Shown: piece by piece, positions 1,943 to 40,317 of the stretch
Layout: every line of letters begins with the position of its first letter
Position numbering within the stretch: position 1 is the first letter of the stretch
Source: a virus
IMG/VR virus record: IMGVR_UViG_3300044816_000012
Location: 1 to 46,280 of that record
Strand: one strand, 5' to 3'
DNA length: 46,280 nucleotides
The notes under the pieces: generated by a model
The model's input: the letters and a program-made list of their open reading frames with translations, nothing else
What the model was told of the DNA's origin: nothing
Database searches by the model: none
Program-made: the position numbers and the translations under genes

Positions 1943-4156
1943 TTACGCGGTGATGTCAACAGTTTCTTTTCGGATATGCGCCATTACATCGATACTAGAC
2001 GCGGTTCCCCACATCTCGTAGTTACGCAGGATTATGCACCTATAGGAGCCTTTACCAATACGCAGTATTCTGCTTTTACCGTTAAACGGAGCCTTGGCCA
2101 GCAGTTTGCCAACTCTATCGTTAGACGGCTTAGTGGTGCAATGTTTGCGCACATGCTCTGCAACTTCGGACGTTATAACTACGTCTGTATCCAGCGGTTC
2201 GGCGTATTGCTCTAAAGCTGTCTGTAGTAGTTCCATGTCTGAGCTTATGGAAGACGCCACCATTGCTTGTCTGGCTTCTGTGTGCGGAGCCTTAGCGGAT
2301 GCCGTGAAGTCGCCTAGGGATAGATTCAAGAAGTAATGCCGCAATGCGCCAGCAGCACGGGAGGTAAGTAGGAAGTCGGTATAGATCCAGTCTTGCTCCT
2401 CCACGGTAAACTGCGGCGCGTTCACGTGGTGTATTCCCCAGCGCCTATCATCGTTATCAACAGCAGCGGCATCTTCCTTATTGCTGGTTGCTGTCACGAA
2501 AAAACAATTAGGCATGGAATACCCGGCACTGCCTTTAGGGTGAATGCTAATCGAATCGTCCGTTATCCAGGGTTTTAACTTCTCCGTTATGGCTTCACGC
2601 TTACCCCTGGTATCCGCCCGGAACTCGGTTAGGTTTATATGCCAAGCGCCTAGCAGAAAGTCGTTAAAGTCGCTATTCAATAGCGCGCCTGTAACCTCTT
2701 GTGAGTACCGCAGTCCGACTAGCAAGCTGGGTATCATCTTAAGTAGTGTCGTCTTACCGTTACCTTGCGTCTCGGACCATATGAGCGGCGCTGACTTAAT
2801 CTTTACCCCCGGTTTCTGTACGACGTGTGCGAAAAACTGCTTGAGCCAATCGCGGTACAAGGTATCGTCTATGCGGGCGAATAGCCACTCAATACGTTCA
2901 AGTTCGCCCGCTGTAGGCTCCAAGGGCTCAGGAAGCACGTTACGGTAGGTGTTAGCGAACGTAGCGTTGTTACCGCTGAATATCGCCCCCTCTCCGGGAT
3001 GAAAGCCTATACCATCGACGAAGCGCTTAGTGCTGCTTTCCTTTAGTATCTTGACCGGGCTAACACGTCCGGCCCTGCCTTTAGGCATCATGCTGGTAAA
3101 CATATGTTCAATAGCGTTGTCGCTACCGATAACCTTATGCCGCTCGCAATCGAAGTAGCGCTCGGCACTATGGACGAATACCAAACGGCTCTCTAGATTC
3201 TGCACCGCGACGGCGCGCAATTGCGCCTTGCTGGCGTTTACGAGCGCTTCCGTAGTCTCTTCGTCTGCTAGCGCAGAGGTTGTGCTTTCTTCGGGGAACT
3301 CTTCCGCCTCCGCCGGCAATTCAGCAACTAGCGCCGCGCCTGTAGCTACGTGCTTGCCGGGAGTGCTGACGAATGATAGGTAGCGCATCTTCAGATGGCT
3401 ATCGCCGGGGTACTTGATGCGTTTGACGCCCTTGGACCATTCGCACCATATGTCCAGCCCTTCCTGTGCGCCGCCTGTTGCGTCGTGAATTTGCATCCCG
3501 ACCTTGAGCCATTCGTCGTGCTCTGCATCTGGCGAATGCTTGAACGTCGCCTTACGCAGCTTGGCTAGATCAATAGCCGGTTTAGCCTTCACCGGGGAAG
3601 TTACCGGGGAAGTTACCGGGGAAGTCGGCTCAGTATTAACAGGTTCTGTAGCAGTCAATTGCCGCCAGCACGCCAATAGCGTTGCGGGGATTGGGGGGAG
3701 GCTGCGCCAATCGCTTAGCAGCCCACCGGCCCATTGGTATTGCCGCCCGCTTGGATGGTAACTGGGGGGCAGCACGTCTTGAACAGATGCGCCTGCGGCA
3801 GTCGCACAGCGCAATTCGACTCCGCTACCTTTCGGCTTTAACGTGCGTAGCGGTCGCTTCATCGCGTATAGGAGCTTTGCACGGTTAGGCGTACCGCTAG
3901 TTATTTGTACCGCATCATCTGCCGCAAGTAGCGCGTCTACATCGACTCCCCTCTCCGCGAGCCATGGCCTAGCGGCTGATAGGGAGTCTATATCCAAACA
4001 TGCGGTGCCGGATAGGGCATGAAGCAGGCCTGCCCCGTCAAGGCCATCAGCCGCAGCTATAGGCTTCGTATTCCAGCCTGGCGCAGTCGGAGCCTTGCTG
4101 CCCTTATCTATGGCACAAAGCTTCCAACCGGCGTCTACGTAGTCCTTAAAGCTCAC
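1943..4156 (-). CDS. Bifunctional primase-polymerase / D5-type SF3 helicase (737 aa)
   Basis: N-terminal Prim-Pol-like segment (DAGWKLCAIDKGSKAPTAPGWN), PriCT-2-like segment (HDEWLKVGMQIHDATGG..WCEWSK), Walker A (SETQGNGKTTLL) and Walker B-like (CFFVTATSN). GTG start overlaps the upstream stop. Confidence 0.88.
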   Translation of the reverse strand: MSFKDYVDAGWKLCAIDKGSKAPTAPGWNTKPIAAADGLDGAGLLHALSGTACLDIDSLSAARPWLAERGVDVDALLAADDAVQITSGTPNRAKLLYAMKRPLRTLKPKGSGVELRCATAAGASVQDVLPPSYHPSGRQYQWAGGLLSDWRSLPPIPATLLACWRQLTATEPVNTEPTSPVTSPVTSPVKAKPAIDLAKLRKATFKHSPDAEHDEWLKVGMQIHDATGGAQEGLDIWCEWSKGVKRIKYPGDSHLKMRYLSFVSTPGKHVATGAALVAELPAEAEEFPEESTTSALADEETTEALVNASKAQLRAVAVQNLESRLVFVHSAERYFDCERHKVIGSDNAIEHMFTSMMPKGRAGRVSPVKILKESSTKRFVDGIGFHPGEGAIFSGNNATFANTYRNVLPEPLEPTAGELERIEWLFARIDDTLYRDWLKQFFAHVVQKPGVKIKSAPLIWSETQGNGKTTLLKMIPSLLVGLRYSQEVTGALLNSDFNDFLLGAWHINLTEFRADTRGKREAITEKLKPWITDDSISIHPKGSAGYSMPNCFFVTATSNKEDAAAVDNDDRRWGIHHVNAPQFTVEEQDWIYTDFLLTSRAAGALRHYFLNLSLGDFTASAKAPHTEARQAMVASSISSDMELLQTALEQYAEPLDTDVVITSEVAEHVRKHCTTKPSNDRVGKLLAKAPFNGKSRILRIGKGSYRCIILRNYEMWGTASSIDVMAHIRKETVDITA
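3591..3626. repeat. 12-nt tandem repeat x3 inside the primase linker (encodes TSPV TSPV TSPV)
   Basis: accggggaagtt accggggaagtt accggggaagtc read directly; in frame, between the Prim-Pol and PriCT domains. Confidence 0.9.
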
Positions 4157-4752: not shown

Positions 4753-4934
4753 GGATATTCCTTGTACTCAATCCGACAAAGAGGTCTGTTGAGCGTCCAA
4801 AAGTTATACGCCTCTTGTGACCGTAGCGCAGCCAATCGTGCTTGTCGTCGGTTAACGCCTATGCCAACGGAGAAGACCTTATCCTCTACGTAGAGGATAG
4901 CTTTGTAGTCTTGTTTCACGGATACAGCGCCCAC
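4749..4934 (-). CDS. hypothetical protein (61 aa)
   Basis: ORF in the operon chain; overlaps neighbours by a few nt. Confidence 0.5.
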   Translation of the reverse strand: MGAVSVKQDYKAILYVEDKVFSVGIGVNRRQARLAALRSQEAYNFWTLNRPLCRIEYKEYP

Positions 4935-5149
4935 ATGCTACCAATCTCGATTGGCTTGAGTACCGTCAATTTACCGCCTTGCCATGCTGCGTTAGGGGTT
5001 TCGTGGATGCGCACTGTACGCCATGCGGCTACGCCAGCGCAACCATTAGCGAGCGAACGGCCGTAGCTTGCTGCTTCATGCTCAGTCGCAAATATCATGC
5101 CGGCGGGACTGTGCCAGTGTTCACGAAAGACTTGAGTTTCGTGGCTCAT
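4916..5149 (-). CDS. hypothetical protein (77 aa)
   Basis: ORF in the operon chain; its start ATG overlaps the stop of upstream micro-ORF 5146..5238. Confidence 0.55.
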   Translation of the reverse strand: MSHETQVFREHWHSPAGMIFATEHEAASYGRSLANGCAGVAAWRTVRIHETPNAAWQGGKLTVLKPIEIGSMWALYP

Positions 5150-5238
5150 GGTCTGAATATCCGTTCTAAAAGCAGCACGGTATGCGCCAGCACTACAAAT
5201 CCTAAGGCTAGCTCTAGAAACGCAATTATGATGCTCAC
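5146..5238 (-). CDS. small hydrophobic peptide (30 aa, GTG start)
   Basis: Not in track. (M)SIIIAFLELALGFVVLAHTVLLLERIFRP; GGAGGA 7 nt upstream; GTGA and ATGA overlaps. Confidence 0.45.
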   Translation of the reverse strand: MSIIIAFLELALGFVVLAHTVLLLERIFRP

Positions 5239-5414
5239 GTCGTAATCCTCCAAATCGCGTATACGAACCCTAGCGAGGCGAGCGCAACGCCATAGTCTCC
5301 ATGTATCGCCAACCAGTCTAAGCGCCGTGCTACGACCTTAGGGTGCGTCTGTGATTGCCAGTAGTGTATAAGGCGCTGATCGAATCTAACCGAGTAGCGG
5401 GTCTGACGGCTCAT
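5235..5414 (-). CDS. hypothetical protein (59 aa from the preferred start)
   Basis: The track ORF is 5235..5462, but the ATG at 5414 is preceded by ataggagtattctca (AGGAG). Confidence 0.5.
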   Translation of the reverse strand: MSRQTRYSVRFDQRLIHYWQSQTHPKVVARRLDWLAIHGDYGVALASLGFVYAIWRITT

Positions 5415-5559
5415 TGAGAATACTCCTATATGACGGTTCTTTAGCTTTCCAGTCGGCTGCATGCTCGGCTAGCGCCCGAAGATGCAGGCCGAGCCACATA
5501 CGGTGATCTTTACACGTATCGCACAGGCATGCAGCATCGGGTTTGTGCGACTGGCTCAC
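5386..5559 (-). CDS. possible small Cys/His protein (57 aa, GTG start)
   Basis: Not in track. (M)[37 protein letters not shown]...; GTGA overlap with the pentapeptide gene stop; overlaps the next gene by 29 nt. Confidence 0.35.
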
Positions 5560-6227
5560 GGTTTCATCACGTCGCGGATGACCGCCTTAACCGATGCGCC
5601 ATGACGTTTCCACCATACCGTGGCGTTTTTGTTCATCGCGCGTATCCATCGGGGATCGGCTTTTAACCATTTTATGTTAGCATGTTGCTGACAGCCTATA
5701 GTTGTATGCGTAGGGGTTACGGTTACGGGCCATCCGCCGAAGTCTAGCCGCGCAATGCGATAACCTTCCGGCAGGTCAGCGCCCTGCAGGTTAGCGCCCC
5801 ACAGGTTAGCGCCCGTCAGGTAAGCGCCCGTCAGGTTAGCGTCCGTCAGGTAAGCGTCCGTCAGGTTAGCGCCCCTCAGGTAAGCGCCCCACAGGTTAGC
5901 GCCCGTCAGGTAAGCGCCCGTCAGGTTAGCGTCCGTCAGGTAAGCGTCCGTCAGGTTAGCGCCCCTCAGGTAAGCGCCCCACAGGTAAGCGCCCGACAGG
6001 TAAGCGCCCGTCAGGTAAGCGCCCGTCAGGTTAGCGCCCGTCAGGTAAGCGCCCATCAGGTTAGCGCCCGTCAGGTTAGCGCCCGTCAGGTTAGCGCCCG
6101 TCAGGTTAGCGCCCGACAGGTTAGCGCCCGTCAGGTTAGCGCCCCTCAGGTCAGCGCCCCGCAGGTCAGCGCCCGACAGTACGGGGACTTCTCTAGCTGG
6201 CGAACCGTCTAAGAATTTGATTAACAT
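5556..6227 (-). CDS. Pentapeptide-repeat protein A (223 aa): about 27 consecutive A(N/D/Y)Lxx units plus a 70-aa unique C-terminal domain
   Basis: [44 protein letters not shown]...; the preferred start at 6227 has GGAGAAATAAT upstream, identical to paralog B. Confidence 0.9.
5771..6178. repeat. 15-nt tandem coding repeat array of pentapeptide gene A
   Basis: Units caggt(t/a)agcg(c/t)cc(g/c/a)(t/c/a) read directly; includes a perfect 90-bp tandem duplication, 5801..5890 = 5891..5980. Confidence 0.95.
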
Positions 6228-6228
6228 A

Positions 6229-6297
6229 TTATTTCTCCGATAATCCAAGGCAGATAGTGATGGTCAACCATGTGCAGATGAATGTGAATAGCATCAT
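6229..6297 (-). CDS. possible 22-aa hydrophobic micro-peptide
   Basis: Not in track. [22 protein letters not shown]; TAATG overlap upstream, and its stop lies 1 nt before the pentapeptide A start. Confidence 0.3.
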
Positions 6298-6737
6298 TAT
6301 CGGCGTCCTCCGGTGATTAGCCGCTTGCGCTCAGCGCTTTTGCGCCCTGCGGTGAATGCCGCGACTATGCGCGATAGTCGCTTAGCGTAGGGAGTTGATA
6401 GCGGCTTACCATTATTACGTGATACGACTTCCGCCGTGAACTTTATGTGGTTGAATTGCCCTCGGCTATAAAACTGCGGCATTAGTGCTTGGATATCGCC
6501 TATGGGCGGCGCTTGAGTCCTAGACTGATTCTTGTAGGGTGCTGCGGGTATCGGCTGGCAGGCGCTACCGTAGGCGCGTATCGCAAGGCTAGCAACGTTG
6601 TAGGCGTCATCTTTCGGTAGGCGTACCGCTTCCCTTGGGTCTGACACCCATCGGTACGCTTCGGCATCGCCGGTTGCTGCTAGGTACATTGGGGTATCAC
6701 GAAACGTTCGGAGAACCAGGTATTGCTGTGTGTTCAT
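6297..6737 (-). CDS. hypothetical protein (146 aa, basic C-terminus) between the two pentapeptide genes
   Basis: Track ORF 6297..6812 trimmed to the ATG at 6737, which sits 1 nt after the stop of gene B (TAAAATG). Confidence 0.65.
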   Translation of the reverse strand: MNTQQYLVLRTFRDTPMYLAATGDAEAYRWVSDPREAVRLPKDDAYNVASLAIRAYGSACQPIPAAPYKNQSRTQAPPIGDIQALMPQFYSRGQFNHIKFTAEVVSRNNGKPLSTPYAKRLSRIVAAFTAGRKSAERKRLITGGRR

Positions 6738-6738
6738 T

Positions 6739-7662
6739 TTAGTATGCTTCCGCTTCTGCGCGAGTGATAAAGAAATGGATACCCTGGGCGCATTCGATGC
6801 GCTTATCGTCACAGAAACCGTCAGGGCGCACGGTCCCCCCGGTGACGTAGGCTATCGTACGGGAGTAACTGTCCTTAGCGCCTGATGCATCTAGAACGTT
6901 GACGTATTCTGCACGGCATTTGCGCGAGCCATAAGCGTTTAGTCGCTTGACGTTAGCCGGTATGCTAAGAATGGCTATAGAGCCGTCGGATAGCTTTTTG
7001 TAGCCAATCAGATTGCCGTCCGGAGTGATGCATTGTTGCTCAAGGCCGGTAACGCCCATCAGGTCAGCGCCCATCAGGTCAGCGCCCATCAGGTTAGCGC
7101 CCATCAGGTTAGCGCCCGACAGGTTAGCGCCCCACAGGTTAGCGCCCCACAGGTTAGCGCCCCACAGGTTAGCGCCCGTCAGGTTAGCGCCCGTCAGGTC
7201 AGCGCCCCTCAGGTCAGCGCCCCTCAGGTAAGCGCCCCTCAGGTTAGCGCCCGACAGGTTAGCGCCCGTCAGGTTAGCGCCCATCAGGTTAGCGTCCGAC
7301 AGGTCAGCGCCCCTCAGGTTAGCGCCCGACAGGTTAGCGCCCCGCAGGTCAGCGCCCATCAGGTAAGCGCCCCTCAGGTAAGCGTCCGACAGGTCAGCGC
7401 CCGACAGGTAAGCGCCCATCAGGTTAGCGCCCCACAGGTTAGCGCCCGACAGGTTAGCGCCCGACAGTTTAGCGCCCCTCAGGTTAGCGCCCCTCAGGTT
7501 AGCGCCCCTCAGGTTAGCGCCCCTCAGGTTAGCGCCCCTCAGGTTAGCGCCCCTCGGGTCAGCGCCCGACAGGTTAGCGTCCGACAGGTTAGCGTCCGAC
7601 AGGTTAGCGCCCAGCAGTACGGGGATTTCACGTGACGTACCGTCTAAGAATTTGATTAACAT
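6739..7662 (-). CDS. Pentapeptide-repeat protein B (307 aa): about 38 repeat units plus a C-terminal domain ending in GIHFF
   Basis: [43 protein letters not shown]...; C-terminal [14 protein letters not shown]...[17 protein letters not shown] resembles the module I recall as recurrently fused to viral pentapeptide proteins (DUF5758-like; from memory, unverified). Confidence 0.9.
7050..7616. repeat. 15-nt tandem coding repeat array of pentapeptide gene B
   Basis: Read directly; includes five perfect consecutive copies of agcgcccctcaggtt (7471..7545). Confidence 0.95.
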
Positions 7663-7672
7663 ATTATTTCTC

Positions 7673-8065
7673 CTATCCTACGTAAAAATAAATTCGGCCA
7701 TCGTCGCCGCGGAAAATGTCATGCGCTGCATTGTCGTCCGCTTCGTAGGATGTCCATTCCTCTTCTGTCGTGTCCGGAGATAGATCCGCCTCCCGAACGG
7801 AGGCGGAGACCCATTGAATGCACAAAGCGTTCAACGCTTCGTTAGACCACGTGCTGAATTCATCCGCCTCCGAGAATCCGGCAGACTTCGCGAGTGCCTT
7901 GAACGCTTCGCGCTGTTCCGCGGTCGACAGTAAGGGGTAATCCTCGCTGTCGTCGTTGGCTGCGCGCCAAGTGTCAGGACCAGCATCGCGGCCAATCTCT
8001 GTAACGCTTGCGCTGTAGTCCGTTGGAGCGGCATTGTTGAAAAATTCTGTGATGTCGAGTTCCAT
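7673..8065 (-). CDS. strongly acidic hypothetical protein (130 aa; I count 29 D/E vs 8 K/R)
   Basis: ORF with ctaggagccgcacacATG; the composition was counted by hand from the translation. Confidence 0.75.
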
Positions 8066-8076
8066 GTGTGCGGCTC

Positions 8077-8691
8077 CTAGTTCGAAAAGATCGCGACGTT
8101 GCCGTTGCTCATTTCAATTTTGTAGATATCGCCGCCGAGCACCATGTCGCGGGCGAAGGCTGCGCAATCGAAATAGTTACGCAGGTTCTCCGGCATTGAA
8201 TCGAGCATGCCGGAATTATCTATGTAGTCCTCCGCGTATTTTTCGACGCTCTCCCATTCGCCGCTGTAGTGGTCGCGGAAATCGTCCGGGTCCGGCAAGT
8301 CTACGCCGCAATGCCCTGTATACAGCGCGTACGCTTCGCCATGCTCGGCGATTAGCTCTGCAGCTTTGGCCACATCGGCGAATGATGTTGACTCACCAAC
8401 CAGACCATAGAAACCTTCATGGTCGTGGATGGCCCATTCCTCGGCGCTCGAAACTTTGGTAGTTCCGTTGCATGTATCACATTCCAGGTTGTCCAAGTCT
8501 GACGGATGCTGTATATCGCAGTCGGGACAATCCACCATCACGTTCGGATGCTTGGACGTGCGCAGTAGCACGTTCACTTCGTCTTGAATGTCCTCGGCTG
8601 ATTTGCCGTCGCAATCGATCCATGCGCCGTGCATCTCGCCGTTGTTGTAGTCCGCGAGGACTGCAACGTAAATTCTTGTGTCATCGCTCAT
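8077..8691 (-). CDS. ardA: ArdA-family antirestriction protein with an inserted CxxC...CxxC zinc-ribbon-like segment (204 aa)
   Basis: RIYVAVLADYNNGEMHGAWIDC..., EEWAIHDHEGFYG, YFDCAAFARDMVLGGDIY...VAIFSN match the ArdA pattern as I know it; the insert is CPDCDIQHPSDLDNLECDTC. Confidence 0.82.
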   Translation of the reverse strand: MSDDTRIYVAVLADYNNGEMHGAWIDCDGKSAEDIQDEVNVLLRTSKHPNVMVDCPDCDIQHPSDLDNLECDTCNGTTKVSSAEEWAIHDHEGFYGLVGESTSFADVAKAAELIAEHGEAYALYTGHCGVDLPDPDDFRDHYSGEWESVEKYAEDYIDNSGMLDSMPENLRNYFDCAAFARDMVLGGDIYKIEMSNGNVAIFSN

Positions 8692-8697
8692 TTGTCT

Positions 8698-8733
8698 ATT
8701 TTCCTATGTGTGTCTATCGAAGTGTTCAACGTG
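8698..8733. repeat. Dispersed ~36-nt repeat, copy 1 (immediately upstream of the ardA start on the minus strand)
   Basis: attttcctatgtgtgtctatcgaagtgttcaacgtg vs copy 2 attttcctgtgtgtgtgtctatcgaggtgttcaacgtg; differences are 2 substitutions and a GT indel. Confidence 0.85.
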
Positions 8734-8841
8734 GACGCTTACCAATGTATCGATGGCGGAGTGCAGCGAGCTTACCGCGATGTGCGCCGCGTAGGCGCCG
8801 GAGGCAATCGCGATTAGCAAGCAGAAAACAAGGGTTTTCAT
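8704..8841 (-). CDS. small secreted-type peptide (45 aa) with Sec-like signal sequence and His-rich tail
   Basis: Not in track. MKTLVFCLLIAIASGAYA/AHIAVSSLHSAIDTLVSVHVEHFDRHT; ATGA overlap with the upstream stop. Confidence 0.5.
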   Translation of the reverse strand: MKTLVFCLLIAIASGAYAAHIAVSSLHSAIDTLVSVHVEHFDRHT

Positions 8842-9032
8842 GACTGCGCCTTGAGTATTGCGCGTTCTTCTTGGCGGGCGAAATCGTCATAGTCGCATGC
8901 GCAAGCTAATGCGAATTCGCGCAATCTGTCATTACTGGTGGCGCCCGCGGCTCGCAGGTACCGCTCGCTCATTGCACGGTAATGCGCAACCATTCGGCGT
9001 TGCGGGAAAAGGGGATTGATGTCGAGTTCCAC
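8838..9032 (-). CDS. hypothetical protein (64 aa, GTG start)
   Basis: ORF; its N-terminus MELDI is shared with gene 7673..8065 (ggaactcgacatca is identical). Confidence 0.55.
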   Translation of the reverse strand: MELDINPLFPQRRMVAHYRAMSERYLRAAGATSNDRLREFALACACDYDDFARQEERAILKAQS

Positions 9033-9038
9033 GTGTTC

Positions 9039-9076
9039 ATTTTCCTGTGTGTGTGTCTATCGAGGTGTTCAACGTG
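9039..9076. repeat. Dispersed ~36-nt repeat, copy 2 (immediately upstream of gene 8838..9032)
   Basis: See copy 1. Confidence 0.85.
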
Positions 9077-9177
9077 TACCAAGACTGATGCATCCGTCGT
9101 GCCAACAGCCATTTGTGGATACCGGACGGCTGTTTTGGTGATTTGCTGTTTTAGCGCTTACCATAAAATGTGACTGC

Positions 9178-9236
9178 TGCATTGCGGTGACAAAGTTTGT
9201 CAGGCCAAAGTAGTCGTTTTTTGTCACCGCAATGCA
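9178..9236. promoter_or_regulatory. Perfect 17-bp inverted repeat (25-nt spacer) containing a nested 7-1-7 palindrome TGACAAAgTTTGTCA
   Basis: tgcattgcggtgacaaa (9178..9194) pairs with tttgtcaccgcaatgca (9220..9236). The palindrome is at 9188..9202 and a third TTTGTCA half-site at 9220..9226. The element abuts the stop of gene 9237..9521. Confidence 0.6.
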
Positions 9237-9521
9237 TCAAACTATCTGCCCTAAGCTGCGTAGACGCTTAAGCAGGTAACCTTCGCGAGTGTTCTCAGCG
9301 ATGGTTACGACGTTAACATTGCTTAGGGCATAACCGCCTTGGTCCCACATACGGGCTAATACCAAGCGCTCTCCTAAAACCTTCCTGTGCCAATGCGGAG
9401 CCCATATCCGCGACCATTGCTCGAAGGTAAGTTCCCAAGGTATGCGCCTTGCTGCGGCTCCTCCGCGTGCGCTTATGAAGCTGGCATGCATATCGGTTGA
9501 CGGTGTAGTGGTCCAAGTCAT
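9237..9521 (-). CDS. first gene of the leftward arm; hypothetical protein (94 aa) with weak resemblance to HNH-associated DNA-binding modules
   Basis: ORF. RIPWELTFEQW and WDQGGYALSNVNVVTIAEN recall motifs seen in small HNH-type phage proteins, but no catalytic His/Cys set is visible. Confidence 0.6.
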   Translation of the reverse strand: MTWTTTPSTDMHASFISARGGAAARRIPWELTFEQWSRIWAPHWHRKVLGERLVLARMWDQGGYALSNVNVVTIAENTREGYLLKRLRSLGQIV

Positions 9522-9644
9522 GTGTTTTTAACCCCCCGGTTGTGGGTTTGTGGAGTACACCACACTAGTTGCTCGGCCGTAAAGTATTTTCGCCCTTCTT
9601 GTTAATAATATAATTTAACACTGCGAACTACTGTATAAAACTGT

Positions 9645-9690
9645 ATGGCACGATTCTCTTTTTAGTGCATTAATGTTAAATGGCACGATT
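9645..9690. repeat. Two copies of atggcacgatt spaced 35 nt apart in the AT-rich segment
   Basis: 9645..9655 and 9680..9690, read directly. Confidence 0.8.
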
Positions 9691-9840
9691 ATTGCGGTTT
9701 CACGTGGCTATTTGACTTATGCTGAAATTAAGGTTGTGGGCGCTCGGCTGGTCACTGGTTACGCTAGGTACGCTTCGACGCATAAAGTAAGTCGCACGGC
9801 TTAGTTGGTATATTTTCTGTGGGACAATATCTATCTTTAA

Positions 9841-9867
9841 GAGTAACAAGAGTAACAAGAGTAACCA
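9841..9867. repeat. 9-nt tandem repeat x3 (gagtaacaa gagtaacaa gagtaacca)
   Basis: Read directly. Confidence 0.85.
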
Positions 9868-10036
9868 TAGGTACTATTCTCCGGGGAAAAGCAAGTTACG
9901 CTTTGCGTTACGCATGGCAGCCAAAATGGTTAAGTGTAACCGAACTGTTAAATAGCCCAGGGCAAATGGCATATCGACCATTCAGCCACGCGCTAGCCAC
10001 GAATAGCCTAGGACGCACGGAGAAGCCCTAGGAGCC

Positions 10037-10071
10037 CCTCTAGCCCTTAGGGGCATGCCTTGGGCTAGAGG
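10037..10071. other. 10-bp stem hairpin (cctctagccc ... gggctagagg) in the GC-rich leader
   Basis: Read directly. Further stems are at 10179..10195 (catcgc/gcgatg), 10293..10326 (cctctt/aagagg) and 10324..10336 (aggcc/ggcct). Confidence 0.6.
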
Positions 10072-10344
10072 CGCATGATCGCCGGGCTGCGGGGCGCTGA
10101 ACGTGCGGTGGGCTGCGATAGGCGTGCTATTTAGGCTGACGGGGTAGGGGTACGGGGGAGAGGCCCTTTGCTGAGGCTCATCGCTGGCGGCGATGGGGGC
10201 GCTAGGTTCAAGGCGATGCGAGGGACCCAAACAGGTACTTGCATTCAGGTACCCGCCGGATGGTTGACGGCCCCACCCTCCGGGGGTATAACCCTCTTTA
10301 GCCGCTCAATCGTTCGAATCAAGAGGCCGGGGGCCTACCAAACC

Positions 10345-10805: not shown

Positions 10806-11124
10806 CTCTTCGAAACAGACACTATTCCGTAACGCCGATAGCCTGGCACGCGAGCACACAGATCGTGCCATCTCGACACTGGCCGAAGTTATGGACGATC
10901 CGTTCGCGGAGAATCGCGACCGGCTACGAGCCGCAGAATCATTACTGGATAGAGGCCATGGCAAGGCAGCGCAAGCCATCATTGCGGTGCCGGCCAACCG
11001 ACAGCAGGCCGCCTTGCTGGCAGCCATGAGCGATGATGAACTTATGACGATCTTGGCGTCTACCCAGTTGCCGCGCCTTACGCAAGATGAAGCAGATGTA
11101 CTCTCAGATCCTCTATTGGCATGA
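10792..11124 (+). CDS. putative small terminase subunit (110 aa, GTG start)
   Basis: Lies immediately upstream of and overlaps (ATGA) the large terminase. RLRAAESLLDRGHGKAAQ resembles a motif I associate with small terminase/DNA-binding packaging proteins. Confidence 0.45.
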   Translation: MAIRNSSKQTLFRNADSLAREHTDRAISTLAEVMDDPFAENRDRLRAAESLLDRGHGKAAQAIIAVPANRQQAALLAAMSDDELMTILASTQLPRLTQDEADVLSDPLLA

Positions 11125-12167
11125 GCGCCCAAGCAGATCCGCAGCACGTAGCCACTGAACTGCTACGCAGACAGCGTGCCCGTGCGAGCTTGGTGGAATT
11201 CTCGCAAGCCATTGAGATACCCGGCGTCCCGATGGTTGACATCGTTGACGAGGAGGACGAAGAAGGGAAACTCAAGAATCGTTTCGAAACACAGGCAGTA
11301 ACATATACGCCTGTAGAATCGCGCATAGCGCTTCATCACCTACTAATGATGCGGGCTATACAGCGTTGCATAGAAACACCAAGAGGACGGCTAATTCTGG
11401 CCGCGCCACCCGGTTCAGCCAAGTCCACGTATGCAAGCGTCATAGCGCCAGCGTGGGCTATGGGACGCAAGAAGAACACGCAGATAATCCTAGCATCCTA
11501 CGGAACATCCATAGCCGCGAAGCAATCACGCAAGGTTCGTTCTATTTGCAGAGACAAGCGGTATACATCGCTGTGGGCGGAGAAGCCTACACTGCTAGAC
11601 GACCAGCGAGCGGTAGACGACTGGCAGTTATCGAACGGATCTTCCATGATGGCAGCGGGCTTACTTGCAGGGATCACCGGCAATCGTGCGGACGGTATTA
11701 TTATCGATGACCCCTGCGCTAATAGAGAACAGGCGGACTCCGCTACGATTCGTGAGAAAACATATAGCGAGTACATAGACACCGCTATGACTCGCGCCAA
11801 GCCCAAGATGTGGGCAATCATAATCATGACACGATGGCACGAAGAAGATTTGGCAGGTGCTATCCTACCGGCAGACTACAACGGGGAAAGCGGAATGATC
11901 CCGTGCCGCGACGGCCAGACTTGGGAAGTACTCAGCATACCTGCTGAGGCGGAGCAGGAGGACGACCCCTTGGGCCGCAAGCCCGGAGAGTTCTTGTGGC
12001 CGGAGCATTGGCCGCGTGAACACTGGTCAACATGGAGGGACAACCCGCGTGCGGCTCGTACATGGTCGGCGCTGTATCAGCAGCGGCCTGCACCGTTCTC
12101 TGGTGTACACTTCTCCCGCGAGATGTTCAAGCGCTTCGACCTAGACCGCCCGCGCGAGGACGTATGA
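11121..12167 (+). CDS. terL: Terminase large subunit, ATPase domain ORF (348 aa)
   Basis: Walker A LILAAPPGSAKST, Walker B ADGIIIDDP, coupling motif IIMTRWHEEDL, linker SALYQQRPAP; ends at TGA 12165..12167. Confidence 0.88.
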   Translation: MSAQADPQHVATELLRRQRARASLVEFSQAIEIPGVPMVDIVDEEDEEGKLKNRFETQAVTYTPVESRIALHHLLMMRAIQRCIETPRGRLILAAPPGSAKSTYASVIAPAWAMGRKKNTQIILASYGTSIAAKQSRKVRSICRDKRYTSLWAEKPTLLDDQRAVDDWQLSNGSSMMAAGLLAGITGNRADGIIIDDPCANREQADSATIREKTYSEYIDTAMTRAKPKMWAIIIMTRWHEEDLAGAILPADYNGESGMIPCRDGQTWEVLSIPAEAEQEDDPLGRKPGEFLWPEHWPREHWSTWRDNPRAARTWSALYQQRPAPFSGVHFSREMFKRFDLDRPREDV

Positions 12168-12814: not shown

Positions 12815-13083
12815 TGCGACACTATCGCCCCGGCATGGCACCAGTTATTACCGACGAACCGGACGCACCTGCGCCCGTCACTTCTATCGTCGCGCCGTTG
12901 GCCTCAATTGAGGCTGCAATGGCAGCGGCTATTGCACGACAAGCGGCGGCTGACGCTGCGAGGGAGGCCGCTAAGCCTGAAATCATCGCAAACCCTACCC
13001 CAAGCCCGGTTGTTACTATGACTGGGCAGAACATGCAGCCATCTCTAAACATCCAGCCTACATTGCTTGGCGTAAAGGGTTAA
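12814..13083 (+). CDS. hypothetical Ala/Pro-rich protein (89 aa)
   Basis: ORF with TAATG coupling to terL. Confidence 0.6.
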   Translation: MRHYRPGMAPVITDEPDAPAPVTSIVAPLASIEAAMAAAIARQAAADAAREAAKPEIIANPTPSPVVTMTGQNMQPSLNIQPTLLGVKG

Positions 13084-13087
13084 CGGC

Positions 13088-15277
13088 ATGGCAACGTCTG
13101 GCGCATCTGGTAGCAGTCCTGGTGGCGTAGCAGGTATCCAATCGGACCCGCGACAAGCAGCCAATGGCGGCATGGATGGGGATGACCTAGAGGAAGATCC
13201 CAAGAATGAAGAAGATGAACGTAAGGAAGAAGCACTAGCCCGCAAGCTTTGGCAGTGCTACGACAATGCTCGTAAGTTTGACGAGAACTTCCGTAAGCAA
13301 GTTGCTATCGACCGGCGCTACGCGGCGGGCACATCTGATTTGGCTTGGGCGGTATCGACTAATCTTATCGGTGCCTTCATCGATGTTTTAGTCGCGTTAC
13401 TCTACGCACGCAACCCCGATGTATCAGTAACGAAGTCGCCGCAGGTTGACGAAGACGGCACGCGGGATATGGAAGTCTTCGCCCGCACGCTAGAGATTGT
13501 AATATCTGCGCTATGGAAGAAAGGCAAGATGAAGCAAGCTGCGCGCAAAGGCGTGCGCTCAGTGCTCAGCAATGCCGAAGGTTGGTTTAAGTGCATGATG
13601 GTTTCCGAGAAGGAACCGCAGCCGGAAGTGGAGACGGCGCTTAATGATGCGAAGGAAACCATCTCCCGCTTGCAAGCGCAACAGAAGTTGCTAGAAGATC
13701 CGCAAGATAGCGATCCTGAGACTATGGAAGCGGAGATGGAGGAGAAGCAGGCACTTGTTGAGGAACTGCAATCAAAGCTTGAACTTGCCGTCAATAAGAT
13801 GTTCGTCATTGACTACGTTGCAACCGAGCGCATGCAGGTTTCCACCGATATCTCAAGCATTTCTGATTACCTTGAAGCCGACTGGATCGGTAACGAGATG
13901 TACTTCACAAAAGAAGACACGATGGCGCGTTTCCCTCGGCTAGATGCGGAAGACGTTAAGAGCGCGAAGATTTATTACCAGCGTCCGCCGAAAGAAATGA
14001 CGACGCGAGACATTGATAACGTATTGCCGCAGGGAATGCTGACGGCGGAGAGCGCACAGGCGTTCACGACTAGCACATCGTCTGAGGAATCCCCGGCGTT
14101 CCTTCGTGTGGTAGAGATTTGGGATCGGCGCGACAAGAAGATTCGAACAATGGTTGACGGCGTTAAGAAATGGGCTAAAGAGCCGTACGCGCCGCCGTAC
14201 CCTTCAAGCCGGTTCTACCCGTACTTCTACTTTTCGTTCTATGAAGTGGACGGTTCACGCCATGCGCAGTCTCTTTCGTGGCGGTTATACAAGCTTCAAG
14301 ACGAATATAGTGCTACGCGCTCCAATTTTCGTATTACTCGTGAGCGCAGTATTCCTGGCGTGCTATTCAACGCTACGATGTTGGATGATACGGAAGCTAA
14401 GAAGCTAACTGAGTCCAAGCATCAGGAATATACGGCGCTACGTCCTAGCGATCCGACTATCCCTATTGCGAATATGTTCGCGCCTAAACCCGTCCAAGCG
14501 ATTGATATGAGGCTCTATGACCCGGCACTCATCCTATCCGACATGGAGCGCATATCGGGAGTGCAAGAGGCATTGTCCGCTGCTGTCAACGGACCTGGAA
14601 ATCCAAAGACCGCCACCGAAGCCAACATCCAGCAGTCTGGTACTGCGGCGCGTACGACCTCGGATAGGGACAACCTAGAGACGATGCTTACCGATATGGC
14701 GCAGTACACTGCGGAGCAAGCGCTACAATGTCTTGAGACTAGGGACGTACAACGGATGGCGGGCCCGAAAGCCTTCTGGCCGGCGGGAATGGACATTGAA
14801 GACTTATTCACGCTGGTTGAGGTTAAGATCGAAGCCGGCACTACGGGCAAGCCGCGTCAGCAGGTAGACCAGCAGGCGTGGTCTACGATCCTGCCGCTTA
14901 TCAAGCAGACATTGCAGGAAATCAATCAGGCTATGTCCACCGGCAACATGCCGATGGCTAATTCATTGATCGAACTGGTTAAAGAGACTATGATTCGCTT
15001 GGGTGACGAAAGCGATATTGAGCGGTTCATCCCGCGTGTACCGCCGCCAGGCTCACCGGGCGCAGGCGCACCGCCGCCGCCAGTCATGCCGACGATTAGC
15101 ATTAGCCTTAAGGGCGACTTGCCGCCGGGCGCAGCGGCTGCGCTGGTAGCCCCTGCGGTTACTGCCGATGCAGTTAGCGCAGCACCGCCTAAACCCGCGC
15201 CTGGGGCAGCACCGCCACCCGGTCCAGGCCCGGGGCCGACACCAGGCGCACCGCCGCCCGGCGCGGGACCGATGTAG
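13088..15277 (+). CDS. Portal protein (729 aa) with Pro/Ala/Gly-rich C-terminal tail
   Basis: Size and position (after terminase, before scaffold/capsid); the C-terminal ~80 aa are PPPGSPGAGAPPPP...GPGPGPTPGAPPPGAGPM. Confidence 0.8.
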   Translation: MATSGASGSSPGGVAGIQSDPRQAANGGMDGDDLEEDPKNEEDERKEEALARKLWQCYDNARKFDENFRKQVAIDRRYAAGTSDLAWAVSTNLIGAFIDVLVALLYARNPDVSVTKSPQVDEDGTRDMEVFARTLEIVISALWKKGKMKQAARKGVRSVLSNAEGWFKCMMVSEKEPQPEVETALNDAKETISRLQAQQKLLEDPQDSDPETMEAEMEEKQALVEELQSKLELAVNKMFVIDYVATERMQVSTDISSISDYLEADWIGNEMYFTKEDTMARFPRLDAEDVKSAKIYYQRPPKEMTTRDIDNVLPQGMLTAESAQAFTTSTSSEESPAFLRVVEIWDRRDKKIRTMVDGVKKWAKEPYAPPYPSSRFYPYFYFSFYEVDGSRHAQSLSWRLYKLQDEYSATRSNFRITRERSIPGVLFNATMLDDTEAKKLTESKHQEYTALRPSDPTIPIANMFAPKPVQAIDMRLYDPALILSDMERISGVQEALSAAVNGPGNPKTATEANIQQSGTAARTTSDRDNLETMLTDMAQYTAEQALQCLETRDVQRMAGPKAFWPAGMDIEDLFTLVEVKIEAGTTGKPRQQVDQQAWSTILPLIKQTLQEINQAMSTGNMPMANSLIELVKETMIRLGDESDIERFIPRVPPPGSPGAGAPPPPVMPTISISLKGDLPPGAAAALVAPAVTADAVSAAPPKPAPGAAPPPGPGPGPTPGAPPPGAGPM

Positions 15278-39821: not shown

Positions 39822-39972
39822 CTGATTGACCCTTAGCCCAGGCGGGCCATTTAGCAAACATGGTTTCTAACTGTTTCCGCAGGTCTAGGCGTATCGTCGC
39901 TTGCGGTCGGAGTATGCCTAGATCTAGCTTCTGTTCGCCCGGCGCTGGCTCGAATATGTTATCTTGGCTCAT
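39811..39972 (-). CDS. hypothetical protein (53 aa)
   Basis: Not in track. [53 protein letters not shown]; ATGA overlap with the upstream stop. Confidence 0.45.
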   Translation of the reverse strand: MSQDNIFEPAPGEQKLDLGILRPQATIRLDLRKQLETMFAKWPAWAKGQSDAV

Positions 39973-40316
39973 AAGTCAAGTTCCGACCGTGGCGGTAAGT
40001 CCTGATTATATTCAACCTGCGCCTCAATTGCTAGCTGCAAAGCCGCCAGCGCTCTCCAAGCGGCTTTGGCTAGGTGCATAGTGCCATCCGTGTCAAACGC
40101 CTTGCCGGCGTGATGGTCCAGCATATGCCGTAGGATCTTGTTCTCATGGTCAGTGGATATACCGCGCTCCCAGCGCAGCTTGCCGCCAAAACCATACTGT
40201 TTATTGCCCGCAACTGAGACTTTGGCTATCTCAGCCCAGCAGTCAGGGAAGTAGGCTAGGCAGCCATCCCAGATAGGGAGGGCGTTACGTGCATCGCGAT
40301 TAGTCGGAAGCGCCAT
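39969..40316 (-). CDS. DUF5664-like protein, possible dATP/dGTP diphosphohydrolase-type domain (115 aa)
   Basis: ALPIWDGCLAYFPDCWAEIAKVSVAGNKQYG..LRWERG...ILRHMLDH fits my recollection of the dGTP_diPhyd_N/DUF5664 pattern (P..fp.al..va.v...G..KY..W..G......RH); start trimmed to ATG 40316. Confidence 0.45.
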   Translation of the reverse strand: MALPTNRDARNALPIWDGCLAYFPDCWAEIAKVSVAGNKQYGFGGKLRWERGISTDHENKILRHMLDHHAGKAFDTDGTMHLAKAAWRALAALQLAIEAQVEYNQDLPPRSELDL

Positions 40317-40317
40317 G

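Follow-up and report, generated by a model that had tools for sequence, protein, structure and literature searches.

The genes between positions 5556 and 8691 of the analysed viral DNA (the window; 46,280 nt, IMG/VR record IMGVR_UViG_3300044816_000012) probably form a mosaic accessory region of independently acquired host-interference cassettes rather than one machine. The cassettes comprise an ArdA homologue, a putative acidic decoy, and two pentapeptide-repeat proteins (PRP-A and PRP-B) with their VNTR arrays. A sequence-only reading of the same DNA had proposed a candidate multi-component counter-defence battery; its interpretation is partly supported.

Organization of the block

The ORF map of the window confirmed the six tightly packed minus-strand ORFs at 5556-8691, all at the positions reported earlier. 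The block and its surroundings contain the following features:

5556..6227, minus strand: PRP-A (Pfam Pentapeptide; hhalign of the C-domain)
5768..6179, minus strand: 15-bp coding tandem array of PRP-A (TRF; 27.5 copies, founder unit the same as that of PRP-B)
6229..6297, minus strand: 22-aa hydrophobic ORF, candidate gene (ORF map; strong Shine-Dalgarno sequence)
6297..6737, minus strand: basic, near-orphan protein (ORF; database searches)
6739..7662, minus strand: PRP-B (Pfam Pentapeptide and DUF5758; AF2)
7053..7612, minus strand: 15-bp coding tandem array of PRP-B (TRF; 37.3 copies of GGC GCT AAC CTG NNG)
7673..8065, minus strand: acidic early protein (phrog_24784 match, AF2 model)
8077..8691, minus strand: ArdA-family anti-restriction DNA-mimic protein (Pfam, PHROG and PDB matches)
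8707..8751, minus strand: 45-nt element immediately upstream of the ArdA start (repeat search and sequence)
9522..10167, no strand assigned: divergent intergenic region (ORF map, sequence, TRF)

As the gaps between the genes are 1-11 nt and a search of the minus strand from 8691 to 5556 found no terminator-like site, co-transcription of the six genes is plausible. The contig is a circular short-read assembly with a 127-bp terminal overlap. Terminase, capsid and tail genes occupy the plus strand from 11.1 kb; on the minus strand, the block is followed downstream by genes for Prim-Pol, SSB, DNA polymerase and an SNF2 helicase. The block lies promoter-proximally in the early/replication arm of this phage, whose circular genome measures 46 kb, and the string of cassettes would form a promoter-proximal accessory region in this complete genome. 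The A+T-rich intergenic region at 9522-10167, with three copies of AAGAGTAAC, separates the minus-strand early arm from the plus-strand packaging/structural arm and is the presumed early promoter region. No consensus σ70 site was called within it and, since the promoter search found none, early expression of the block is proposed from gene order and analogy. A second copy of the 45-nt element (9050-9094, 80% identical) lies upstream of a 64-aa ORF (8838-9032); the element may be a cassette leader or a regulatory sequence.

Homologues of both PRPs and of the acidic protein were located in early/replication modules in all contexts examined. The early-arm position suggested by the sequence-only reading was borne out, the genes standing at the 5' start of that arm, and the consistent virion association of homologues that it had named as counter-evidence was seen in none of these contexts.

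ArdA and the acidic protein

The first gene of the block encodes a bona fide ArdA family member, as had been recognized earlier. The 204-aa protein (net charge -32; homologues -24 to -34) matched Pfam PF07275 (E 2.9e-35; 122.6 bits, cut-off 27), PHROG 2059 'anti-restriction protein' (E 1.9e-32) and PDB 2w82 (E 2e-10). A CxxC...CxxC insertion of about 40 aa (residues about 55-99), common only to one subfamily of viral ArdAs, sits between domains 1 and 2. ArdA (Tn916 Orf18, PDB 2w82) and T7 Ocr inhibit type I restriction-modification by mimicking DNA, and from its family membership the protein encoded in the window would be expected to act in the same way.

The previously noted composition of the acidic protein was also confirmed: 29 D+E versus 8 K+R in 130 residues, net -21. 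It matched PHROG 24784 (E 8e-24), a conserved phage family, and has 146 homologues in the protein database; the family retains a strong negative net charge, from -8 to -24 (mean -17). Its AF2 model is of high quality (pLDDT 95.4, pTM 0.89), sequence and profile searches against PDB gave no match, and neither did Foldseek against PDB and BFVD (best E 3.7 and 1.0, respectively). The protein is therefore confidently predicted to adopt an orphan fold, which we count among the new findings. In a survey of eight loci (six metagenomic, two phage genomes), the six metagenomic loci had the gene inside a series of small ORFs, all on one strand, whose transcription leads away from packaging genes (four loci) or replication genes (two loci), for example away from terminase/portal genes in L005-L007 and from a primase-like gene in L003. 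The homologue in phage Salvo is among the leftward early genes, and at one locus the homologue is downstream of a Lar restriction-alleviation gene. The acidic protein may act on a host protein that binds nucleic acids, either as a decoy or as an inhibitor. Acidity by itself does not make a DNA mimic, and no relative with a known function was detectable.

Association of the genes in other viruses

Viral loci carrying one of the components were inspected for the others: (i) none of 28 ArdA loci (375 kb) contained a PRP array, the acidic protein, DUF5758, the GCQ domain of PRP-A or the basic protein; (ii) none of 80 DUF5758 loci (541 kb) contained ArdA, the acidic protein, the basic protein or the GCQ domain; (iii) none of the eight acidic-family loci contained ArdA or a PRP. 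Judged by the gene content of these loci, the six genes are not conserved together as a multi-gene system, and the coordinated battery proposed earlier is not supported, its parts having been found together at none of the loci inspected.

The 146-aa basic protein, whose charge was confirmed (net +13, pI 10.4), had no match in Pfam, PHROG, PDB, NCBIfam or PADLOC and only seven matches at E<=1e-3, itself included, among 1.8 billion representatives. The neighbouring 22-aa ORF has a GGAGGA Shine-Dalgarno sequence in front of it; it overlaps the stop of the basic-protein gene with its start and ends 1 nt ahead of the PRP-A ATG. A single co-evolved counter-defence system made up of all six genes, for example through pairing of the acidic and basic proteins or delivery of ArdA by the PRPs, would fit their common orientation, the short gaps without an internal terminator, and the type I anti-restriction gene ral that adjoins a PRP gene in ST64T. 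The survey and the near-orphan status of the basic protein argue against it, however, and we regard such a system as very unlikely.

Domain structure of the pentapeptide-repeat proteins

PRP-A (223 aa; Pfam Pentapeptide E 1.4e-68) has 27 pentapeptide units (nt 5769-6173), in line with the earlier estimate, followed by an 'IGCQxH...W...AM' C-terminal domain of about 70 aa (nt 5556-5768). Its true start is almost certainly the ATG at 6227: 35 nt from GGAGAAATAATATG through the first eight codons (MLIKFLDG) are identical to the start of PRP-B. A start at TTG 6248 is disfavoured by this identity of ribosome-binding site and N-cap with PRP-B.

PRP-B (307 aa) consists of an N-cap, 37 uninterrupted in-register G-A-N/D/Y-L-x units (nt 7057-7611) and a DUF5758 domain (nt 6739-7041), with Pfam E-values of 8e-80 (Pentapeptide) and 1.8e-13 (DUF5758). 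The latter corresponds to the GIHFF-ending domain described before, while the count of about 38 units had to be corrected to 37 clean ones. The two PRPs share ribosome-binding site, N-cap and repeat codons and differ in their C-terminal domains; by these sequence features they are paralogues. The AF2 model of PRP-B (pLDDT 87) has a beta-helix followed by a beta-rich domain, and its Foldseek matches are HetL, a synthetic solenoid, QnrB1, AlbG, MfpA and EfsQnr. The expected quadrilateral beta-helix is thus predicted with good confidence for PRP-B.

The sequence-only reading had suggested that the phage may use several DNA-shaped or DNA-charged decoys at once and that the PRPs may be aimed at a DNA-binding host enzyme or a defence sensor. 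If the PRPs were DNA-shaped rods of the Qnr/MfpA/AlbG kind, their partner would be the DNA gyrase or topo IV of the host, with the effect either of modulating supercoiling for phage replication or of protecting gyrase from host or competitor toxins. The PRP-B model resembles QnrB1, AlbG, MfpA and EfsQnr at the fold level, broad conservation of DUF5758 suggests a conserved target, and gyrase is, as far as is known, the sole target on which a molecular activity of bacterial PRPs is well characterised (PMC7897471). However, the best fold matches, HetL and synthetic solenoids, are generic PRPs, and the NCBIfam Qnr/MfpA models scored 49-84 bits against cut-offs of 240-360, so that membership was rejected. 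The arrays are uninterrupted and therefore lack Qnr loops A/B, a globular C-domain takes the place of the dimerising helix, and 0 to 45 repeats among homologues are incompatible with a fixed, DNA-gate-sized mimic. The net charges of the two proteins are +6 and +2, with uncharged or aromatic surfaces (Thr/Tyr/Trp/Met/Arg). Mimicry of DNA shape or charge by the PRPs is thus not supported, in keeping with the caveat on electrostatics raised in the earlier reading itself, and a topoisomerase target is unlikely.

PRP-A and the gp60/Orf-232 family

The earlier remark that the functions of phage PRPs are essentially uncharacterised is slightly outdated. Deletion of gp60 (SBVc24_0060) is reported to sensitise Vibrio phage 24 to the RexAB-like abortive-infection system Sucellos, with gp60 escape mutations in outward-facing repeat residues (preprint 10.1101/2024.07.02.601686). 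gp60 is 48% identical to Orf-232 of Salmonella phage ST64T (E 1e-54), which is encoded directly after ral within the early-left operon. The C-domains of gp60, Orf-232 and PRP-A all match phrog_31567. With hhalign, the PRP-A C-domain gave 87% against Orf-232 alone and a probability of 98.1% (E 8e-14) against a profile of four members, namely gp60, Orf-232 and the bridging isolates Caulobacter BL94 gp020 and Ralstonia DU_RP_II p036. Only the C-domain of PRP-A can be aligned with gp60 (about 20% identity), and the PRP-A subfamily is rare (five database homologues, one IMG/VR locus). This relationship places PRP-A in what is so far the sole family of phage pentapeptide proteins with a reported activity against bacterial defence. 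The analogy draws on one preprint and on a distant relative of PRP-A.

In unit register, gp60 Y112 and N115 correspond to positions i+1 and i-1, both of which vary in the window arrays. Given the Sucellos phenotype and the location of the escape mutations, PRP-A is proposed to be a protein-binding anti-defence factor. Contact with a host sensor would be made by the surface of its beta-helix (positions i-1, i+1 and i+2 in every unit), and the GCQ domain would serve as anchor or effector.

DUF5758 and PRP-B

The DUF5758 domain is present in phages of Actinobacteria, Firmicutes, cyanobacteria and Proteobacteria, at no fewer than 511 loci in IMG/VR, and is 45-66% identical across very distant hosts, with a fixed C-terminus. 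K222, R240, R247, K248, R250, Y272, G294 and H296 are invariant, and C249, E290 and C291 are kept in at least 90%. Because the repeat tract can be wholly absent (DUF5758-only proteins exist), the conserved core of the family is, on comparison of its sequences, the C-domain and not the rod. Mycobacteriophage Filch gp59 (PRP and DUF5758) is encoded by the third gene of an operon divergent from the immunity repressor, and the metagenomic PRP-DUF5758 genes neighbour small early ORFs. PRP-B would be an early protein with DUF5758 as its conserved core, marked by the invariant basic RKCRAE motif and by EC..GIHFF. This core is likely to bind or modify some conserved component of the host, and the rod of repeats would act as a variable-length adaptor. 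The breadth of DUF5758 across phage hosts is more in keeping with a conserved housekeeping target than with a fast-evolving defence system.

PRP-B, and possibly PRP-A, might instead be host-takeover effectors with no anti-defence role, DUF5758 being a small enzyme or binding module that acts on conserved host machinery and the rod only a spacer or solubility scaffold. The identity over distant hosts, the invariant basic/Cys/His/Glu constellation, the fixed C-terminus, the proteins without repeats and the number of IMG/VR loci favour this possibility. On the other hand, searches found neither a catalytic fold nor a PDB relative for DUF5758, the rod shows variation restricted to its surface and turnover of its copy number, which point to diversifying pressure on the rod itself, and the adaptive mutations in the gp60 family are on the repeat surface (preprint 10.1101/2024.07.02.601686). 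We consider a takeover function doubtful, though less so than a topoisomerase target.

Evolution of the repeat arrays

TRF scores of 579 (PRP-A) and 735 (PRP-B) place the repeats far above chance. In the PRP-B array, Ala is encoded by GCT in 37/37 units and Leu by CTG in 36/36, and variation is limited to unit nucleotides 2, 7 and 13-14. The PRP-A array contains an internal 90-bp (six-unit) duplication, seen as a 104-bp exact repeat at 90 bp offset. In 45 of 59 DUF5758-linked arrays and in all 50 Orf-232-type arrays, Ala and Leu are each encoded by one codon that is specific to the array. One 15-bp unit is the difference between phages L and ST64T (PMC8022706), and 16 loci with identical C-domains have 10 to 26 units; copy-number differences between assemblies may in part reflect assembly error, as 23 of 75 contigs are broken within the array. 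New are the observations that these arrays in phage PRP genes consist of coding 15-bp tandem repeats with codons uniform within and different between arrays, that they vary almost solely in outward-facing residues, that copy number differs among genes with identical C-domains, and that the two paralogues of the window have RBS, N-cap and repeat codons in common. The arrays would evolve as coding 15-bp VNTRs, each with a single codon per buried residue and with other codons in other arrays; together with substitutions almost solely at surface positions and rapid copy-number turnover, this is the pattern expected of an arms-race interface.

Long arrays could be artefacts of short-read metagenome assembly, the real genes being short or disrupted. 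The contig was assembled with k=127 and circularised, arrays of this kind often break assemblies, and the phage 24 array needed re-sequencing and was corrected by Sanger (preprint 10.1101/2024.07.02.601686). However, exact repeats inside or between the arrays do not exceed 104 bp, none reaching 127 bp, and the assembled copy number is therefore internally unambiguous. Neither ORF is disrupted or out of frame, their N-caps and C-domains are conserved, and comparable arrays exist in isolates (BL94 about 25 units, DU_RP_II about 30, Filch about 26) and in IMG/VR (up to 45). An artefact is thus extremely improbable.

Comparison with known systems

The window ArdA aligns with Tn916 Orf18 (2w82) over domains 1-3 and is equally extreme in acidity, but differs in carrying the CxxC...CxxC insertion. 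Like T7 ocr, it is encoded by one of the first genes of the early arm. The PRPs are not members of the Qnr/MfpA/AlbG family: they lack its loops, C-terminal dimerisation helix and acidic surface and carry extra globular C-domains.

PRP-A shares with gp60/Orf-232 (phrog_37032) a short N-terminal cap, a 15-bp uniform-codon array and a GCQxH...W...I..MD C-domain, as well as a place in an early operon adjoining anti-restriction functions; its natural variation is at i-1 and i+1, where the gp60 escape mutations fall. The N-cap itself is different, and the 27-unit surface of PRP-A is Thr/Tyr-rich whereas those of gp60 and Orf-232 are Arg/Asp/Cys-rich.

Like TAL-effector repeats and bacterial contingency VNTRs, the window arrays are tandem coding repeats near-identical at the DNA level, in which few surface codons vary and copy number shifts between close relatives, a likeness in mode of evolution and not in homology. 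Their unit of 15 bp encodes 5 aa of a beta-helix, compared with 102 bp in the helical TALE repeat, and the window arrays give no sign of a one-unit-one-ligand code.

PRP-B has the two-domain architecture and all invariant residues of gp59 of the cluster E mycobacteriophages (244, Cjw1, Filch; PF19062), with 45% identity in DUF5758, and gp59 is likewise an early gene. The gp59 repeats are a diverged, old array with mixed codons, whereas the PRP-B array is uniform in codon usage.

Genome organization and position of the block

The two ends of the window overlap exactly over 127 bp (1-127 and 46154-46280), and the window is a complete, circular genome from a short-read assembly with k=127. When the block and 20 kb of the window were compared by megablast with 50,697 phage records, no match was returned; the phage has no close relative among them. 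Plus-strand genes between about 10.2 and 37.5 kb encode packaging, capsid and tail functions, together with lysozyme and holin. A single long minus-strand arm begins at about 9.5 kb and runs leftward; since the contig is circular, this early arm passes through position 1 and extends as far as about 37.7 kb. In addition to a primase, it encodes an Enc34-type SSB, a DNA polymerase and an SNF2 helicase. The block is located in the promoter-proximal part of this arm.

Main features of the two arms and of the block
11121-12167, plus strand: terminase, within the packaging/structural arm
17365-18465, plus strand: major capsid, within the packaging/structural arm
1943-4156, minus strand: Prim-Pol/D5-like primase, replication arm
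8077-8691, minus strand: ArdA homolog
7673-8065, minus strand: acidic 130-aa protein
6739-7662, minus strand: pentapeptide-repeat protein (PRP) PRP-B, repeats followed by DUF5758
6297-6737, minus strand: basic 146-aa protein
6229-6297, minus strand: 22-aa ORF
5556-6227, minus strand: PRP-A, repeats followed by a C-terminal GCQ domain

All six ORFs that the sequence-only reading had placed at 5556-8691 are present as described; they are separated by gaps of 1-11 nt, and no terminator-like sites were found on the minus strand inside the block. The array of PRP-B is likewise present, with 37 clean units counted instead of the roughly 38 first reported. PRP-A almost certainly starts at the ATG at 6227 and is identical to PRP-B over 35 nt, from the Shine-Dalgarno sequence GGAGAAATAATATG to codon 8. 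A 200-aa ORF on the plus strand (7033-7635) was rejected as a gene, being an antisense reading of the PRP-B array.

A consensus promoter scan of the divergent intergenic region yielded nothing usable. This A+T-rich region contains three tandem copies of AAGAGTAAC (9839-9865) and two copies of AATCGTGCCAT (about 9640-9700), which are candidate operator or promoter elements. A 20-nt inverted repeat (9175-9239; arms 95% complementary, spacer of 25 nt) is located directly downstream of the arm's first ORF (9237-9521) and, ahead of the ArdA block, may act as an operator, attenuator or terminator. Two copies of a 45-nt direct repeat, 80% identical to each other, are found immediately upstream of ArdA (8707-8751) and of a 64-aa ORF at 8838-9032 (9050-9094), a placement that fits cassette-like mosaicism. 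A 20-nt repeat spans the start codon of the acidic gene in one copy (8050-8069) and that of the same 64-aa ORF in the other (9017-9036); both products start with MELDI. The 45-nt and 20-nt repeats may be cassette-boundary or regulatory sequences.

Two further observations concern genes outside the block. A 124-aa protein encoded at 39969-40343 on the minus strand matches the dATP/dGTP diphosphohydrolase N-terminal domain (PF18909, E 5e-13); this diphosphohydrolase is the MazZ-type enzyme of those phages whose purines are modified. In the plus-strand ORF 32256-33596, a 111-bp tandem repeat (32604-32894; 2.6 copies, 76% identical) encodes a Gly-rich, collagen-like sequence, and the gene is a probable tail fibre gene.

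ArdA and the acidic protein

The proposed ArdA homolog was confirmed by a PF07275 score of 122.6 bits (cut-off 27); the PHROG label of the 8077-8691 product is 'anti-restriction protein', and residues 3-27 and 83-189 of the protein align with the Tn916 ArdA structure 2w82 (E 2e-10). Its net charge of -32 over 204 aa is strongly acidic, as is typical of DNA mimics, and 13 viral ArdA homologues range from -24 to -34. In contrast to Tn916 ArdA, the protein carries a zinc-ribbon-like CxxC...CxxC insertion of about 40 residues (approximately 55-99) between domains 1 and 2; the insertion is common to a viral ArdA subfamily (loci L020, L022, L023 and L025), while other viral ArdAs are devoid of it. 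The assignment is secure at the level of sequence and designates an ordinary, already known kind of protein, which on entry would block type I R-M enzymes.

The acidic protein is a member of phrog_24784, a family with 146 metagenomic homologues and with relatives in Xylella phage Salvo and Xanthomonas phage XacN1; viral contigs scanned with the acidic protein as single query gave no match. Net charge in the family is -8 to -24 (mean, -17). In six metagenomic loci (L003-L008) the gene lies within a run of small unannotated same-strand ORFs. This run is adjoined by opposite-strand terminase genes in three of them (L005-L007), and L003 has a primase-like gene on the same strand a few kb upstream, while the neighbours in the two shortest loci (L004 and L008) are uninformative. 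A gene for Lar restriction alleviation precedes the acidic gene in two overlapping loci, and in Salvo the family member is one of the leftward genes located at its cos end. In locus L007, a second 130-aa ORF (4904-5296) is present about 700 bp upstream of the acidic-family gene (6001-6393) and could be its paralogue; tblastn with the window protein, in which one match was kept per locus, listed the 6001-6393 copy.

The AlphaFold model of the acidic protein is very confident (pLDDT 95.4, pTM 0.89). Foldseek searches with this model found no match in the PDB or in BFVD (best E 3.7 and 1.0, respectively; TM <0.3), and sequence and profile searches of the PDB gave nothing meaningful. Given the conserved family, the confident model and the empty fold searches, the protein appears to be a well-folded acidic early phage protein without a known fold relative. 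Its charge and position suggest that it might serve as a decoy or DNA mimic. A strongly acidic family that is predicted to be well folded and has no structural relative is a candidate new inhibitor.

Fold of the pentapeptide-repeat proteins and relation to Qnr and MfpA

Members of the PF00805 superfamily have at least eight contiguous A(D/N)LXX units. The arrays of PRP-A and PRP-B comprise 27 and 37 units, uninterrupted and in register, with Pfam Pentapeptide E values of 1e-68 and 8e-80, respectively. [quoted passage not shown] The AF2 model (pLDDT 87) places the helix at approximately residues 18-205, with a short strand recurring at five-residue intervals between residues 20 and 205, and a beta-rich domain after it; Foldseek matched it to PRP structures with E values down to 6e-14 and TM up to 0.80. 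The full-length protein matched only PRPs, both generic ones and Qnr, AlbG and MfpA. PRP-A would, judging from its array, adopt the same beta-helix fold.

Membership of the two proteins in the Qnr or MfpA families was rejected, with scores of 49-67 bits against the NCBIfam cut-off of 240 for Qnr and 56-84 bits against that of 360 for MfpA. Loops break the helix in Qnr, whereas there are none in the 27 or 37 units of PRP-A and PRP-B; Qnr and MfpA have a C-terminal dimerising helix, in place of which the window proteins carry globular C-domains; and the surface of MfpA is acidic, while the net charges of PRP-A and PRP-B are +6 and +2. On these grounds, the earlier caveat that electrostatic DNA mimicry is not to be expected of the PRPs holds.

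PRP-A is related to gp60 of Vibrio phage 24

Database homologues of the PRP-A C-domain (about 70 aa) number only five, and each is a PRP fusion. Weak tblastn matches (E 3e-4 to 3e-5) were obtained in Ralstonia phage DU_RP_II and in Caulobacter phages (BL94), whose proteins have 25-30 repeat units; sequence and profile searches of the PDB with the C-domain gave nothing meaningful. In hhalign, the domain matched that of Orf-232, a PRP of Salmonella phages ST64T and L, at 87% when the latter was used alone, and its profile matched a four-member profile at 98.1% (E 8e-14, 55 columns). Orf-232 is in turn homologous to gp60, the PRP of Vibrio phage 24 (48% identical, E 1e-54), and phrog_31567 is matched by the C-domains of PRP-A, gp60 and Orf-232 alike. 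PRP-A displays the features of the PRP-GCQ family (phrog_37032, phrog_31567), namely C-domain homology over the pattern GCQxH/Y ... W ... I..MD ... A..W/F and a codon-uniform 15-bp array that is fused directly to the GCQ domain and located in an early/replication module. Sequence and profile comparison thus shows PRP-A to be homologous to the gp60 family.

In phages L and ST64T, orf232 belongs to the early-left operon (PMC8022706), and in ST64T it immediately follows the anti-restriction gene ral. Phage 24 mutants that escape Sucellos, a RexAB-like abortive-infection system, have the changes Y112R and N115D in gene 24_60, which encodes gp60, and deletion of 24_60 greatly raises sensitivity to Sucellos; from these effects an anti-defence role of gp60 was proposed, the repeat-surface mutations strengthening its counter-Sucellos effect (preprint 10.1101/2024.07.02.601686). 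The gp60 family is the only one among phage PRPs for which a function, counter-defence, has been reported. By C-domain homology PRP-A belongs to it as a distant member; within the family, counter-Sucellos activity is reported for gp60 alone. PRP-A might bind a host sensor via its Thr/Tyr/Trp-rich helix surface.

The GenBank record of phage 24 (KJ572844.2) has gene 24_60 at 12900-13322 with only eight repeat units (140 aa). As the numbering of Y112 and N115 within the repeats needs a longer array, the deposited record appears to contain a collapsed repeat. In phage CP-T1, otherwise collinear with phage 24, gene 24_60 is absent according to the record's own notes.

PRP-B and the DUF5758 domain

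DUF5758 (PF19062) was recognized in PRP-B with 50.8 bits (gathering score 26.9). Residues that are invariant across homologues (K222, R240, R247, K248, R250, Y272, G294 and H296) or near-invariant (C249, E252, E290 and C291) are all kept in PRP-B, and the C-terminal end is fixed; identity across hosts is 45-66%. The domain occurs in 158 phage records, 152 of which belong to Mycobacterium cluster E, where the protein is annotated 'gp59, pentapeptide repeat protein'; the remaining ones are from Synechococcus, Ralstonia, Rhizobium and Thiohalocapsa phages. At least 511 loci were found in IMG/VR, and the domain is also present in a few Bifidobacterium and Enterococcus megaplasmids. Neither sequence nor profile searches with DUF5758 revealed a relative in the PDB. 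In mycobacteriophage Filch the gene is the third of an operon divergent from the immunity repressor, and in metagenomic contigs DUF5758 genes lie among small early ORFs.

The number of repeat units in IMG/VR homologues varies from 0 to 45, which indicates that the DUF5758 domain rather than the repeat rod is the constant core; this range also rules out that the window arrays are uniquely over-expanded. DUF5758 of PRP-B may engage a conserved host factor, with the rod (Arg/Ser-rich, then Trp/Met-rich) possibly serving as an adaptor.

Evolution of the repeat arrays

Both window arrays are 15-bp tandem repeats at the DNA level, with 89% unit identity. Throughout the 64 units, Ala is always encoded by GCT, Leu by CTG (with one Pro exception), Gly by GGC, and Asn, Tyr and Asp by AAC, TAC and GAC; the fifth codon has the form NNG without exception. 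Units differ from one another at nucleotides 2, 7 and 13-14, plus one AAC>AAA and one CTG>CCG change, and the sole synonymous pair is AGG/CGG (Arg), found once in each array. In the pentapeptide fold, the side chains of the central Leu (position i) and of Ala (i-2) point inward, and those of i-1, i+1 and i+2 outward. Taken together with the variable nucleotides, this means that practically only outward-facing residues vary. Two of about 21 variant types are synonymous, whereas about 37% would be the crude neutral expectation for the synonymous share among tolerated substitutions (p ~0.005; a rough estimate and not a formal test).

Other arrays are equally uniform but use other codons for Ala and Leu: GCG/TTG in locus L009, GCG/CTG in locus L011 and DU_RP_II, GCC/CTG in ST64T and BL94, and GCA/CTA in phage 24. 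Codon uniformity was seen in 45 of 59 DUF5758-linked arrays of at least six units and in all 50 Orf-232-type arrays. Filch gp59 and the Bifidobacterium gene have codon-diverse arrays, which are old. Copy number differs widely, with 10-26 units in 16 prophage loci of identical C-domain sequence and 8-32 units in seven others; phages L and ST64T, more than 99.9% identical, are one 15-bp unit apart (PMC8022706). Part of this variation may be an artefact, since the arrays are hard to assemble: 23 of 75 Orf-232-type contigs (L129-L208) end inside the pentapeptide array, which is a recurrent breakpoint in prophage and draft genomes, and the array of phage 24 needed re-sequencing (preprint 10.1101/2024.07.02.601686). 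The longest exact repeat in the window arrays is 104 bp, which is below the assembly k-mer of 127.

The unusual GCT founder codon is common to both window arrays, yet the DNA of their N-caps is only 69% identical; this points to exchange between paralogues or to a common recent seed. In other contigs, one N-cap precedes both types of C-domain (protein P0223 versus P0130 and P0132), suggesting that recombination inside the arrays exchanges the C-terminal modules. A diversity-generating retroelement was considered as the cause of the variation and rejected: a Pfam scan of 51 window proteins found no reverse transcriptase domain, and the variation is among tandem units and not between a TR/VR pair.

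In the unit register, the phage 24 escape positions Y112 and N115 correspond to i+1 and i-1, and the same positions vary in the window arrays. The array signature argues for the repeat surface being an evolving interface, in agreement with these escape positions. A literature search did not find this signature described, which consists of codons uniform within an array but differing between arrays, surface-only substitutions and copy-number spread. A practical consequence is that PRP array genes are systematically mis-assembled, truncated or labelled 'Qnr-like resistance' in databases.

Independent cassettes rather than a co-evolved system

The sequence-only reading had put the block forward as a candidate multi-component battery for counter-defence. 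As a co-evolved system this could not be sustained, because the components were not encountered together in the other loci surveyed. In 28 viral ArdA loci (375 kb) there was neither a PRP array nor any other part of the block, none of 80 DUF5758 loci (541 kb) contained ArdA, a GCQ domain, or the acidic or basic protein, and none of eight acidic-family loci contained ArdA or a PRP. The basic protein is a near-orphan with seven matches at E<=1e-3, itself included, among 1.8 billion representatives, and searches of the PDB with it gave nothing meaningful. PADLOC returned no match in the block, so nothing points to its genes being defence genes.

Anti-defence genes form clusters where phage early regions begin, and reportedly also in plasmid leading regions. 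A plasmid leading-region reading of the block was rejected: DUF5758 is found in only seven plasmid or megaplasmid records, all non-mobilisable, and the acidic protein in none. The most fitting description of the block is an accessory island of anti-defence type in the early region, an arrangement of known kind. On balance, the evidence leans slightly towards an early island of independent host-interference or anti-defence cassettes, of which at least PRP-A takes part in counter-defence.

Wider reading and comparison with known systems

A broader and rather doubtful proposition is that early PRPs of phages are a general, rapidly re-tunable inhibitor scaffold. Under this proposition, a coding VNTR of 15 bp would build the beta-helix, and slippage or recombination combined with selection would reshape its length and outward residues; recombination within the array would join the helix to interchangeable C-modules such as the GCQ domain and DUF5758. 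Phages could thereby quickly evolve binders of host immune sensors, for example RexAB-like systems. PRP-A and PRP-B, which have ribosome-binding site, cap and founder unit in common, would capture a stage at which duplication has been followed by an exchange of modules; the acidic protein next to them, with its orphan fold, would represent a new class of decoy.

To our knowledge, the neighbours of known anti-defence genes are mostly uncharacterised. The locus described here ties two abundant phage families to an early anti-defence setting, namely PRP-DUF5758, with its at least 511 IMG/VR loci, and the gp60/Orf-232 type of PRP-GCQ proteins. Compared with known systems, ArdA is familiar, and the PRP families are known as widespread but uncharacterised, one of them with an emerging anti-defence precedent; new are the evolutionary signature in both PRP families, the relation of the two window proteins as apparent paralogues with swapped modules, and the acidic family with its orphan fold.
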